NCBI RefSeq assembly: GCF_029227855.1
Contig: NZ_CP074356.1
DNA length: 64,000 bases
Source of the DNA: Escherichia coli
Lineage (GTDB): Bacteria; Pseudomonadota; Gammaproteobacteria; Enterobacterales; Enterobacteriaceae
Direction: 5' to 3' (one strand)
The notes beneath the pieces were generated by a model that saw nothing but the letters and a program-made list of their open reading frames with translations, was not told where the DNA came from and searched no databases. Below are positions 1,327 to 62,320 of this stretch, piece by piece (position 1 is the stretch's first letter; every line of letters begins with the position of its first letter). The position numbers and the translations under genes are program-made.

Positions 1327-1650
1327 ATGCGTAATAGCCATAACATTACACTAACAAATAACGACAGCCTTACTGAGGATGAAGAAACCACATGGTCACT
1401 GCCTGGTGCCGTGGTCGGTTTTATCTCCTGGTTATTTGCGCTGGCGATGCCGATGTTGATTTATGGCTCTAACACGCTGTTCTTCTTTATCTACACCTGG
1501 CCTTTCTTTCTGGCGCTGATGCCCGTCGCGGTAGTGGTGGGGATTGCGCTGCATTCATTGATGGACGGAAAGCTACGCTACAGTATTGTTTTCACCCTGG
1601 TGACAGTAGGCATTATGTTTGGCGCACTGTTTATGTGGCTACTGGGCTAA
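1327..1650 (+). CDS. ygbE: Small inner-membrane protein YgbE
   Basis: Track ORF 107 aa, hydrophobic; conserved position between cysC and ftsB. Confidence 0.8.
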   Translation: MRNSHNITLTNNDSLTEDEETTWSLPGAVVGFISWLFALAMPMLIYGSNTLFFFIYTWPFFLALMPVAVVVGIALHSLMDGKLRYSIVFTLVTVGIMFGALFMWLLG

Positions 1651-8154: not shown

Positions 8155-8865
8155 TGTGCACAGAAAACCCCCAGCTAGGCTGGGGGTTCCGGAAAGCTTT
8201 CAGCTTTAAGCCAGTTATTAAAACCCCTTTTGATTTGTTAAAACACCTTGCGGTCTGGCAACTGCAAGTGTCAAACAAGAAATCAAAAGGGGGTCCCAAT
8301 GGGGAACGAAAAGAGCTTAGCGCACACCCGATGGAACTGTAAATATCACATAGTTTTTGCGCCAAAATACCGAAGACAGGTGTTCTACAGAGAGAAGCGT
8401 AGAGCAATAGGCAGTATTTTGAGAAAGCTGTGTGAGTGGAAAAGTGTACGGATTCTGGAAGCTGAATGCTGTGCAGATCATATCCATATGCTTGTGGAGA
8501 TCCCGCCCAAAATGAGCGTATCCGGCTTTATGGGATATCTGAAAGGGAAAAGCAGTCTGATGCTTTACGAGCAGTTTGGTGATTTGAAATTCAAATACAG
8601 GAACAGGGAGTTCTGGTGCAGAGGGTACTACGTCGATACGGTGGGTAAGAACACGGCGAAGATACAGGATTACATAAAGCACCAGCTTGAAGAGGATAAA
8701 ATGGGAGAGCAGTTATCGATTCCCTATCCGGGCAGCCCGTTTACGGGCCGTAAGTAACGAAGTTGGATGCAAATGTCAGATCGTGTGCGCCTGTTAGGGC
8801 GCGGCTGGTAAGAGAGCCTTATAGGCGCATTTGAAAAACCTCCGGCTATGCCGGAGGATATTTAT
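8155..8865 (+). mobile_element. IS200-family insertion sequence (IS200/IS605 family); boundaries approximate
   Basis: Intact 152-aa Y1 HUH transposase with the HxH motif; hairpin at the left end (8166..8188); imperfect stem-loop around the RBS (8226..8290); hairpin at the right end (8839..8857); overall size about 0.7 kb as expected for IS200. Confidence 0.8.
8299..8757 (+). CDS. tnpA: IS200/IS605-family transposase TnpA (Y1 HUH)
   Basis: Track ORF 8248..8757 trimmed to the ATG preceded by an AAAAGGGGG Shine-Dalgarno; product 152 aa, MGNEKSLAHTRWNCKYHIVFAPKYRR...HIHMLVEIPPK, typical IS200 TnpA. Confidence 0.9.
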   Translation: MGNEKSLAHTRWNCKYHIVFAPKYRRQVFYREKRRAIGSILRKLCEWKSVRILEAECCADHIHMLVEIPPKMSVSGFMGYLKGKSSLMLYEQFGDLKFKYRNREFWCRGYYVDTVGKNTAKIQDYIKHQLEEDKMGEQLSIPYPGSPFTGRK

Positions 8866-60338: not shown

Positions 60339-60524
60339 ATGCTGATTCTGACTCGTCGAGTTGGTGAGACCCTCATGATTGGGGATGAGGTCACCGTGAC
60401 AGTTTTAGGGGTAAAGGGCAACCAGGTACGTATTGGCGTAAATGCCCCGAAGGAAGTTTCTGTTCACCGTGAAGAGATCTACCAGCGTATCCAGGCTGAA
60501 AAATCCCAGCAGTCCAGTTACTAA
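60339..60524 (+). CDS. csrA: Carbon storage regulator CsrA
   Basis: Track ORF 61 aa: [61 protein letters not shown]. Confidence 0.98.
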
Positions 60525-60750
60525 TCTTTCCGCGTCTCATCTTTATCGGTGAGACGCACCCCTCAAAATATCTCCTTCACTCCATTGTCTTTTCGCTTTA
60601 CTCCCGTTCATTCAACTTAAGTCTCCATTTTTTTGCATTACTGCTATCTGACAGACCTCCGTTTTTCTGTTGATAAAACACTCTTTTTGACGTTTTTACA
60701 GACTAATTGAGCGTGAAGTGTGCAAACGATAAAAGTGTGGGAAAAATTGT

Positions 60751-60778
60751 TTGACTTATAAGTCTCAGAAAGTAATAT
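60751..60778 (+). promoter_or_regulatory. Putative sigma-70 promoter of the serV-argVYZQ tRNA operon
   Basis: TTGACT (60751..60756), 16-bp spacer, TAATAT (60773..60778), then a GC-rich discriminator gcgccacgc; A/T-rich upstream. Confidence 0.55.
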
Positions 60779-60840
60779 GTGCGCCACGCAGCGACGATGA
60801 GCGATAAACAAGTTCTTCGAAGCACTCGTAAGAGGCGTGT

Positions 60841-60933
60841 GGTGAGGTGGCCGAGAGGCTGAAGGCGCTCCCCTGCTAAGGGAGTATGCGGTCAAAAGCT
60901 GCATCCGGGGTTCGAATCCCCGCCTCACCGCCA
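60841..60933 (+). tRNA. serV: tRNA-Ser (anticodon GCU)
   Basis: 93-nt type II tRNA, ggtgaggtggccgagaggc...ccgcctcaccgcca, with anticodon loop ctGCTaa and long variable arm. Confidence 0.95.
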
Positions 60934-60936
60934 TTT

Positions 60937-61013
60937 GCATCCGTAGCTCAGCTGGATAGAGTACTCGGCTACGAACCGAGCGGTCGGAGGTTCGAATCCT
61001 CCCGGATGCACCA
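60937..61013 (+). tRNA. argV: tRNA-Arg (anticodon ACG), copy 1
   Basis: 77-nt cloverleaf gcatccgtagctcagctggatagag...cctcccggatgcacca, anticodon loop ctACGaa; 3 nt after serV. Confidence 0.93.
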
Positions 61014-61128
61014 TATTCTACGTACTTTCAGCGATGAAGGTATGGAAGAGGTGGCGGTAATAACCGCAGGCACCAGGGAGGATAACGTTGCTTTAGCAAC
61101 GGCCCGAAGGGCGAGCCGCAAGGCGAGT

Positions 61129-61147
61129 AATCCTCCCGGATGCACCA
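61129..61147 (+). other. Orphan 3' fragment of a tRNA-Arg gene (T-loop/acceptor remnant) inside the 198-nt spacer
   Basis: aatcctcccggatgcacca is identical to the last 19 nt of the intact tRNA-Arg copies but has no 5' acceptor strand; the spacer after it matches the other inter-tRNA spacers. Confidence 0.7.
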
Positions 61148-61211
61148 TCTCTTACTTGATACGGCTTTAGTAGCGGTATCAAAAAATCTGAAGTAAAGTA
61201 AGTTTCCCGAT

Positions 61212-61288
61212 GCATCCGTAGCTCAGCTGGATAGAGTACTCGGCTACGAACCGAGCGGTCGGAGGTTCGAATCCTCCCGGATGCACCA
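61212..61288 (+). tRNA. argY: tRNA-Arg (anticodon ACG), copy 2
   Basis: Identical 77-nt sequence to copy 1. Confidence 0.93.
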
Positions 61289-61350
61289 TCTCTTACTTGA
61301 TATGGCTTTAGCAGCGGTATCAATATCAGCAGTAAAATAAATTTCCCGAT

Positions 61351-61427
61351 GCATCCGTAGCTCAGCTGGATAGAGTACTCGGCTACGAACCGAGCGGTCG
61401 GAGGTTCGAATCCTCCCGGATGCACCA
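61351..61427 (+). tRNA. argZ: tRNA-Arg (anticodon ACG), copy 3
   Basis: Identical 77-nt sequence to copy 1. Confidence 0.93.
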
Positions 61428-61529
61428 TATTCTCCGTAATCATCAGTGATGATGGTTAAGATGGATTTTCTTATTTGATATGGCTTTAGTAGCGGTATCA
61501 ATATCAGCAGTAAAATAAGTTTTCCCGAT

Positions 61530-61606
61530 GCATCCGTAGCTCAGCTGGATAGAGTACTCGGCTACGAACCGAGCGGTCGGAGGTTCGAATCCTCCCGGAT
61601 GCACCA
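61530..61606 (+). tRNA. argQ: tRNA-Arg (anticodon ACG), copy 4
   Basis: Identical 77-nt sequence to copy 1. Confidence 0.93.
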
Positions 61607-61753
61607 TCTTCTCCAAAAAATTTCCTTCAAAAATATCTCATTTCTAAATAACTACTTTATCCATTTCCTGAATTTTCTTCTCCTTCGCCATCAGCGACAA
61701 AATCAAGCAATTACGCTAAAGTAGCGTCATATTTTTCGACTTGCGAGAAGACC

Positions 61754-62320
61754 ATGTACGAGCGTTATGCAGGTTTAATTTTTGATATGGATGGCACCAT
61801 CCTGGATACCGAGCCTACGCACCGTAAAGCGTGGCGCGAAGTATTAGGGCACTACGGTCTTCAGTACGATGTTCAGGCGATGATTGCGCTTAATGGCTCG
61901 CCCACCTGGCGTATTGCTCAGGCGATTATTGAGCTGAATCAGGCCGATCTCGACCCGCATGCGTTAGCGCGTGAAAAAACAGAAGCAGTAAGAAGTATGC
62001 TGCTGGATAGTGTCGAGCCGCTTCCTCTTGTTGAAGTGGTGAAAAGCTGGCATGGTCGTCGCCCAATGGCTGTAGGAACGGGGAGTGAAAGCGCCATCGC
62101 TGAGGCATTGCTGGCGCACCTGGGATTACGCCGTTATTTTGACGCCGTCGTCGCTGCTGATCACGTCAAACACCATAAACCCGCGCCAGACACATTTTTG
62201 TTGTGCGCGCAGCGTATGGGCGTGCAACCGACACAGTGTGTGGTCTTTGAAGATGCCGATTTCGGTATTCAGGCGGCCCGTGCAGCAGGCATGGACGCTG
62301 TGGATGTTCGCTTGCTGTGA
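61754..62320 (+). CDS. yqaB: HAD-family sugar phosphatase YqaB (fructose-1-phosphate phosphatase)
   Basis: Track ORF 188 aa; HAD motif I FDMDGTILDT. Confidence 0.9.
   Translation: MYERYAGLIFDMDGTILDTEPTHRKAWREVLGHYGLQYDVQAMIALNGSPTWRIAQAIIELNQADLDPHALAREKTEAVRSMLLDSVEPLPLVEVVKSWHGRRPMAVGTGSESAIAEALLAHLGLRRYFDAVVAADHVKHHKPAPDTFLLCAQRMGVQPTQCVVFEDADFGIQAARAAGMDAVDVRLL

Follow-up and report, generated by a model that had tools for sequence, protein, structure and literature searches.

A short-form tRNA-linked repeat very probably occupies the spacer after argV in the serV-argVYZQ operon of an Escherichia coli strain

The family of short repeats that follow stable RNA genes in E. coli was first seen as the 178-bp repeats of tyrT and is represented in Rfam by the RtT model (PMC8144298, Rfam RF00391). 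Its members are named "tRNA-linked repeats" (TLRs) in PMC8144298, which cites Egan and Landy 1978 and Rudd 1999. TLRs are recognized by their 3'-terminal 18-19 bp, which repeat exactly the 3' end of whichever tRNA or rRNA gene lies upstream, and K-12 contains 22 of them at ten loci (PMC8144298). The same work states that no function is known for these repeats. One of its listed strains lacks all 22 TLRs and has Delta(argY/Z/Q, raQ/Z/V) in its genotype, and the strain table names raQ, raZ and raV along with argY, argZ and argQ. RtT is no longer mentioned in the latest version of PMC10542128.

Some TLRs or comparable spacers are related to discrete RNAs. RttR is an annotated RNA of 171 nt. RrA, RrB and RrF, found downstream of 5S rRNA in rrnA, rrnB and rrnD, are processed from the operon transcript and bind CsrA and Hfq in vitro, traits that the TLRs of tRNA operons are predicted not to have (PMC8144298). 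Both ends of RrB have been mapped, to RNase E-type sites that lie 3 nt past the 5S rRNA and 3 nt past the repeat, and the authors propose the repeat, i.e. the copied 3' end of a stable RNA, as an RNase E determinant (PMC8144298). The 3' external transcribed spacer of leuZ is another by-product of tRNA operon processing that is able to persist as a discrete RNA; unlike the element considered below, it is a base-pairing sponge and carries no copy of a tRNA end.

We analyzed the gap between the first two tRNA-Arg genes of the serV-argVYZQ operon (61014-61211) in a 64,000-nt stretch of an E. coli chromosome (contig NZ_CP074356.1), hereafter the window. The genes of the locus are csrA, serV, four tRNA-Arg(ACG) genes and yqaB, in this order and all on the + strand. 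The four tRNA-Arg genes are 77 nt long and identical in sequence (60937-61013, 61212-61288, 61351-61427 and 61530-61606). The region 60800-61720 is 100% identical to E. coli strain JNEC-KY178. Coordinates of the features are collected in Table 1.

Table 1. Features of the serV-argVYZQ locus around the repeat, in window coordinates
Feature	Position	Strand	Basis
Promoter-like site upstream of serV, TTGACT/16 nt/TAATAT	60751-60778	+	predicted
serV, tRNA-Ser	60841-60933	+	tRNA calling
argV, first tRNA-Arg(ACG), host whose 3' end is copied	60937-61013	+	tRNA calling, sequence comparison
raV, short-form tRNA-linked repeat (probable), 134 nt	61014-61147	+	K-12 identity, RtT match, fold
Leader hairpin A, CGTACTTTCA / TGAAGGTATG	61021-61044	+	fold
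Hairpin B, GCGGT AATA ACCGC	61054-61067	+	fold; covaries among Arg TLRs
5' arm, GCACC-A-GGGAGGAT	61070-61083	+	fold, comparative pairing
Core hairpin 1, CGTTGC TTTA GCAACG, near-invariant family-wide	61086-61101	+	
Core hairpin 2, GCCC GAA GGGC, near-invariant family-wide	61102-61112	+	
Core hairpin 3, GCC GCAA GGC, sequence variable, pairing kept	61115-61124	+	
Exact 19-nt copy of the tRNA-Arg 3' end	61129-61147	+	sequence match
Ordinary inter-tRNA spacer and leader of the second tRNA-Arg	61148-61211	+	alignment with spacer 2
Spacer 3, raZ remnant, about 96 nt deleted relative to K-12	61428-61529	+	comparison with K-12
Terminator-like hairpin and T run after the fourth tRNA-Arg, likely operon end	61713-61727	+	predicted

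The first 134 nt of the gap are very probably a short-form TLR, akin to RtT, and not a unique decayed tRNA. The element is ordinary and already catalogued, as raV of the serV-argVYZQ operon: K-12 has the identical 134 nt in its argV-argY spacer, i.e. at the same locus, right after the tRNA gene, on the same strand and with the same 19-nt copied end. We infer the name raV for the copy after argV from the naming pattern of the operon. Our literature search returned nothing specific to the arg spacer. The K-12 operon contains two further copies, after argZ and argQ (three in all), and the K-12 TLRs share with the present element the core CGTTGC..GCAACG-GCCCGAAGGGC, with no difference of substance. 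Position downstream of a stable RNA gene (its first base directly follows the CCA of argV, on the same strand and within the operon), a 19-nt copied end, the common core and a catalogued counterpart in K-12 are thus all found together in raV, and they are the traits by which a TLR is recognized.

The initial annotation of this DNA had taken the gap for the decayed remnant of a sixth tRNA unit, with its 5' part replaced. Its description of the sequence proved accurate. The 3' end of the block (AATCCTCCCGGATGCACCA) reproduces exactly the last 19 nt of tRNA-Arg, whose counterpart in argV is at 60995-61013; both the position and the full length of the identity agree with what had been reported. 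The identity stops there, the adjoining base being T and not G. The window contains five occurrences of this 19-mer, of which four are within tRNA genes, and the chance expectation for a given 19-mer in the window is about 5e-7. The copy is indeed followed by a normal inter-tRNA spacer of 64 nt, which aligns with spacer 2 (61289-61350) in 55 of 64 columns. The resemblance that had been seen between the start of the gap and spacer 3 is also real: 9 of the first 10 nt match, and the two sequences share a first hairpin, if a 1-nt indel is allowed, before they diverge. The gap starts like spacer 3 because spacer 3 is itself the deletion remnant of a second TLR, raZ.

The interpretation given to these observations fared less well. 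What stands is that 19 nt are derived from a tRNA and that the gap holds no intact tRNA: on the + strand of 61014-61211, no tRNA was detected by ARAGORN or by the Rfam tRNA model, even at E up to 10. The longest string common to 61014-61128 and tRNA-Arg is 6 nt, and the only tRNA likeness outside the copied end is a degenerate acceptor-like GCAcCaG, comparable to the GCATCCG of the acceptor 5' strand. What does not stand is the idea of a unique, one-off unit, for the block belongs to a dispersed family with a common core, of which the K-12 operon has three members. Two other types of calls were rejected as artefacts from the reverse strand of real tRNAs, namely an antisense "tRNA-Arg(tcg)" at 60957-61028 and matches to Plastid-ycf2.

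A match to a known RNA family had been named in the initial annotation as evidence against a decayed tRNA. Such a match exists, to RtT, yet it remains under the curated gathering score of RF00391 (45 bits): a relaxed Rfam scan of 6 kb gives 29.2 bits for 61037-61147, and a search of 241 nt gives a 5'-truncated match of 40.6 bits (E = 8e-7) for 60990-61147. The alignment covers hairpins 1 and 2 (AACGTTGC-TTTA-GCAACGGCCCGAAGGGCGAG ... CGAGTAATCC) and the ...CACCA end. The K-12 copy raZ obtains a similar score (31 bits), and the four units of the K-12 tyrT operon, each of which has the last 19 nt of tRNA-Tyr at its end, score 133-138 bits. The full RtT architecture was not found in raV, in which the 5' module (a T-arm-like hairpin and a CGAGCG..GCGAG hairpin) is missing. 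The score of raV is below threshold because the Rfam model describes the long form of the repeat, and the short form does not have this module.

The RtT/RttR repeats of tyrT and raV have in common the core hairpins, the last 19 nt of the host tRNA and a helix which closes the element by pairing of a 5' arm with the copied end. They differ in length (134 nt for raV, 175-178 nt for the tyrT repeats), in the GAGAAnC..GGTTCGA..CGAGCG..GCGAG module that raV does not have, and in arrangement, raV being single and the tyrT repeats tandem. In addition, the closing helix of raV is predicted to reach further into the acceptor strand, with 13 pairs and a 4-nt ACCA tail. RrA, RrB and RrF belong to the same family and have the same core as raV; unlike raV, they have 5S rRNA as host, they lie between two terminators, and their GGA motifs are located in loops.

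The distribution of the family was then considered across species. A scan for the core GCAACGRCCCGAAGGGYGA, with one genome per species, gave at least 160 matches at no fewer than 120 loci. Among the matches listed, the nearest upstream tRNA on the same strand is Tyr in 47 cases, Lys in 37, Arg(ACG) in 22, Pro in 8, Glu in 3 and Ser in 1. In at least 98 of the 160 matches listed, the core is followed by an exact copy of the 3' end of its own host tRNA, of at least 14 nt and mostly of 18-19 nt, which usually lies 12-20 nt beyond the core among these matches. Several of the listed matches without an upstream tRNA adjoin 5S rRNA and finish with the copied 3' terminus of 5S rRNA (AACTGCCAGGCAT and trailer); these units, of the rrA, rrB and rrF type, carry a complementary GGCAGTT arm upstream. 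Among the matches listed, Arg-linked units are present in Enterobacter, Kosakonia, Citrobacter, Klebsiella, Phytobacter and Pluralibacter, and also in Silvania, Brenneria, Hafnia, Serratia, Pantoea and Yersinia. This range of genera implies that the element long predates E. coli. Core matches in Rhizobiaceae, Actinacidiphila, Clostridia, Archangiaceae and others have no adjacent tRNA, and we took them as chance matches in a very large database.

Two forms of the repeat can be distinguished. The long form (Tyr, many Lys, Pro, Glu and the Yersinia Arg units) contains the extra GAGAAnC..GGTTCGA..CGAGCG..GCGAG module, which includes the T-stem 5' strand of the host's own tRNA. In the short form (most Arg and some Lys units), GGAT is joined directly to AACGTTGC. 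The Arg TLR of Yersinia nurmii contains in addition a 23-nt copy of nt 37-59 of tRNA-Arg. These pieces of host tRNA make it plausible that the family arose from tRNA 3' halves, and we consider that TLRs may descend distantly from them.

The hairpin-prone character attributed to the gap in the initial annotation is borne out by its predicted fold. The 134-nt block folds at -60.3 kcal/mol, compared with -38.9 +/- 4.0 for shuffled sequences (z = -5.4; 0 of 200 shuffles as good). In the predicted structure, the closing helix is formed by GGGAGGAT (61076-61083) and ATCCTCCC (61130-61137), and it is extended by pairing of GCACC (61070-61074) with GG-A-TGC (61138-61143) around a bulged A. The ACCA tail (61144-61147) is unpaired in the comparative consensus structures; the minimum free energy fold of the single sequence shows a weak 3-bp pairing over part of it. 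Taken together, raV is predicted to be a minihelix resembling an acceptor/T arm, whose expanded "T loop" holds three small conserved hairpins. Position A is also occupied by a hairpin in other genera, with a different sequence.

Comparative data indicate that part of this structure is maintained: covariation is seen in the closing helix and in hairpin 3, both between species and between host tRNAs. In the short-form Arg and Lys units (27 distinct sequences), 93.8% of the cells are paired, versus at most 51% when the partners are slid. The closing stem shows GC, UA and AU variants of one pair, and hairpin 3 shows GC, CG, AU and UG. None of 500 shuffles of these 27 units attained the observed percentage paired or the covariation score, a control that related sequences can exceed without any structure. 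RNAalifold applied to 15 Arg units gives independently hairpin B, the acceptor-like extension, the closing stem and the three hairpins, and eight pairs are changed on both sides among these units. Hairpin B covaries among the Arg TLRs, with pairs 42-55 to 45-52 changed on both sides. The closing stem is GGAAG/CTTCC in Hafnia and GGAGG/CCTCC in E. coli, and at the base of the stem Pantoea has A-U where E. coli has G-C. RNAalifold applied to 25 long-form units (Tyr, Lys, Pro and Arg) again gives the closing helix, with pairs that track the host tRNA. Much of the covariation of the closing helix lies between the Arg and Lys classes, so that it represents few independent events, and the short Lys TLRs have a conserved A.G mismatch in this helix. 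A crude test of the longest complement between the copied end and the arms of its own or of other types is clear for Tyr (9.4 vs 5.4 nt), separates less well for Arg (6.9 vs 5.1 nt), and does not separate own from other arms for Lys, Pro and Glu; the case for arm pairing rests on the aligned pair counts and not on this test.

Within E. coli, the 134 nt of raV are found at 99% identity or more in 3171 of 5426 complete genomes. The three copies of the operon do not have the same fate in the present strain and in K-12: K-12 keeps all of them, whereas here raV alone is intact, raZ is gutted and raQ is gone. The absence of raQ is precise. The flank resumes right after the CCA of the fourth tRNA and is identical at 139 of 140 positions to the K-12 sequence beyond raQ. 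The deletion junction of raZ in spacer 3 is not restricted to this strain, since it is present in 651-659 genomes. Given that TLRs are variably present and that a strain without any of the 22 is listed, any function they have must be dispensable.

We then considered how raV might be processed. It would be co-transcribed with the tRNAs as part of the serV-argVYZQ unit. A single transcription unit is suggested because a promoter-like site precedes serV (the only one predicted within 60500-61800) and a terminator-like site follows the last tRNA, with none inside; in particular, no promoter-like or terminator-like site is predicted inside the raV block. The block may then be cut just past its pseudo-CCA by the enzymes of tRNA 3'-end maturation (RNase E, followed by exonucleases), because the terminal helix and the trailer context (TCTCTTACTTGATA) of a real tRNA-Arg are rebuilt there. 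The product of such a cut would be a discrete RNA of about 134 nt, and the leader of the next tRNA would remain as usual. A precedent is offered by RrB, whose ends have been mapped. In the case of RttR, the Rfam match to the K-12 tyrT unit and the annotated rttR gene share their last base, and the annotation therefore puts the 3' end of the RttR RNA at the end of the repeat. On balance, excision of a co-transcribed raV through tRNA-like 3' processing signals is the mechanism that we favour, as an evenly poised proposal.

A more novel reading is that TLRs are selected mimics of the terminal helix of the stable RNA that each of them follows. It is based on the co-evolution of the 5' arm with the copied end (Arg, Lys, Tyr, Pro) and on the existence of a matching arm for 5S rRNA. 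We regard it as rather doubtful. If it were true, raV would present a near-complete acceptor/T-arm minihelix with an uncharged ACCA end, made in step with tRNA-Arg, and it could decoy or buffer enzymes and factors which recognize tRNA 3' ends, among them RNase E, RNase P, RNase T/PH, the CCA-adding enzyme and poly(A) polymerase. It would in that case be more than a passive spacer.

Other explanations of the block were weighed against its assignment to the TLRs. The first to come to mind is that of the initial annotation, a sixth tRNA-Arg gene whose 5' two-thirds was lost or replaced and of which 19 nt are left over. Besides the identity of these 19 nt to the tRNA end, the arm GCAcCaG-GGAGG resembles the acceptor 5' strand and the T-stem 5' strand of tRNA-Arg; host-specific T-stem 5' strands (GAAGGTTCGA, GGAGGTTCGA) in long-form TLRs and the 23-nt piece of Y. 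nurmii point in the same direction. However, the same "replacement" sequence is found after five tRNA species and 5S rRNA in many genera, and in three copies in the K-12 operon, with no trace of a D arm or anticodon arm and no match to a tRNA model. The block is moreover conserved with covariation, unlike a decaying sequence, and its 19 nt are still identical to the tRNA in most of the species sampled, where a drifting pseudogene would differ. As the immediate explanation of the block, decay of a tRNA is contradicted by these data, and we hold it to be very unlikely. The footprint of an integration event, or a small mobile element, is a second possibility. Integrases of the T-loop class leave direct repeats of the tRNA 3' end which start in the T loop. 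The 19-nt direct repeats at the end of argV and at the end of the block fit this pattern and would then be att-type or target-site duplications, with the 115 nt as the element or its remnant; the presence or absence of raQ is precise and bounded by the repeat, and the core is dispersed to many different stable RNA genes. Yet there are just 115 nt between the repeats, with no integrase or cargo, and phage and plasmid records are essentially free of the core, the matches there being mislabelled chromosomes. Nor is one recombinase expected to target the ends of Tyr, Lys, Arg and Pro tRNAs, Glu tRNA and 5S rRNA. Recombination between the repeats, or between tRNA copies, accounts equally well for the precise loss of raQ, and the host-specific arm and its covariation point to a constraint at the RNA level. 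An origin by integration is, in our opinion, highly improbable.

Two further explanations concern what the block might encode. It could be a trans-acting regulatory RNA (binding Hfq or CsrA, or acting as a sponge) released from the tRNA operon, as suggested by the in vitro properties of the processed RrA, RrB and RrF (PMC8144298), by the strong structure and conservation of raV, and by the position of the locus directly downstream of csrA. But the 19 TLRs of tRNA operons scored below 0.01 in a predictor of CsrA binders, and an early rtT phenotype was retracted (PMC8144298). The four GGA motifs of raV (61044, 61077, 61080 and 61138) are all within predicted stems, no target is known, and the copy number of TLRs varies freely among strains; a regulatory RNA is accordingly an unlikely reading. 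A small protein gene comparable to tpr, in the form of the 42-codon ORF at 61042-61170, is far less likely still and can hardly be entertained. This ORF is present in E. coli and a TLR of tyrT bears the annotated tpr ORF, but the frame differs from that of tpr, the start codon is lost in raZ and raQ of K-12 and in other genera, and stops interrupt the frame in several species. Conservation follows base pairing and not codons. The assignment to a short-form TLR is thus the one that we retain.

What looked like a broken tRNA is a member of a catalogued repeat family, and an E. coli genome can be expected to show the same pattern, a GC-rich hairpin block followed by a copied tRNA or 5S 3' end, at some ten loci. 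Our result is incremental, concerns a known family and does not define a new type of element. Its one modest addition to what is known of the TLRs is comparative evidence for a 5' arm that follows the copied 3' end of the host RNA. This tracking of the host 3' end by the closing helix is a concrete hint of selection on the RNA fold.

The tRNA-linked repeats (TLRs, whose 3' end copies 18-19 nt of the upstream tRNA or rRNA 3' end) of the serV-argVYZQ operon were compared between this strain and K-12; the table below lists features of the window and of the comparison loci. The third K-12 TLR, raQ, located after the last tRNA-Arg, is precisely missing in this strain: from position 61607 of the window onward, the flank restarts directly 3' of the tRNA CCA and is identical to K-12 at 139 of 140 positions. 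raQ is a clean presence/absence polymorphism with the 19-nt repeat as its boundary. With K-12 as reference, spacer 3, which follows the third tRNA-Arg, corresponds to raZ (the TLR after argZ) minus about 96 nt. Of 5426 complete E. coli genomes, 651-659 carry this deletion junction.

Features of the window and of the comparison loci
Feature	Location	Strand	Remark
STnc490	window 8166-8289	+	Rfam match; Hfq-binding small RNA
9-bp inverted repeat	window 60533-60558	+	immediately 3' of csrA stop codon
tRNA-Arg(tcg)	window 60957-61028	-	ARAGORN, spurious antisense call
42-codon ORF	window 61042-61170	+	within raV
Spacer 3	window 61428-61529		shortened raZ
raQ	L001 (K-12) 1504-1636		after last tRNA-Arg
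Arg-linked TLR, long form	L078 120-281	-	Yersinia nurmii

The ORF found in raV, the TLR after the first tRNA-Arg, uses a different frame from the tpr ORF that the tyrT unit carries. Its start is not conserved in the other TLR copies and other genera compared, and its frame is not conserved there either. Two antisense signals, the tRNA-Arg called by ARAGORN and the sub-threshold Rfam matches to Plastid-ycf2 (33 bits against 65.7) opposite each of the four tRNA-Arg genes, are apparently artefacts that arise because tRNAs are self-complementary. Elsewhere in the window, STnc490 gives a strong Rfam match (146 bits for a cut-off of 56). The inverted repeat following csrA (GCGTCTCAT ... GTGAGACGC) is perfect, and direct reading of the sequence revealed no T run downstream of it.

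Besides the 18 nt from the tRNA 3' end, the Arg-linked TLR of Yersinia nurmii contains an exact 23-nt copy of tRNA-Arg nucleotides 37-59; because it carries both segments, it looks like the 3' half of a tRNA with the TLR core, i.e. the conserved hairpins, inserted into the T loop. The core also lies 3' of 5S rRNA at eight loci at least (L008, L044, L045, L048, L054, L084, L085 and L109). These units, which correspond to the published rrA, rrB and rrF, terminate in a repeat of the 3' end of 5S rRNA (AACTGCCAGGCAT and trailer), to which an upstream GGCAGTT is complementary, and at some loci they directly precede tRNA-Thr(GGT) or tRNA-Asp.

Both core hairpins (CAACGTTGCGCAGCAACGGCCCGAAGGGTG) are also found within a repeat of Pectobacterium zantedeschiae (L051 and L052) which has neither an adjoining tRNA nor a copy of a stable-RNA 3' end; at L052 this repeat forms a tandem array with units of about 75 nt. 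The TLR core may be a module of another repeat family too.
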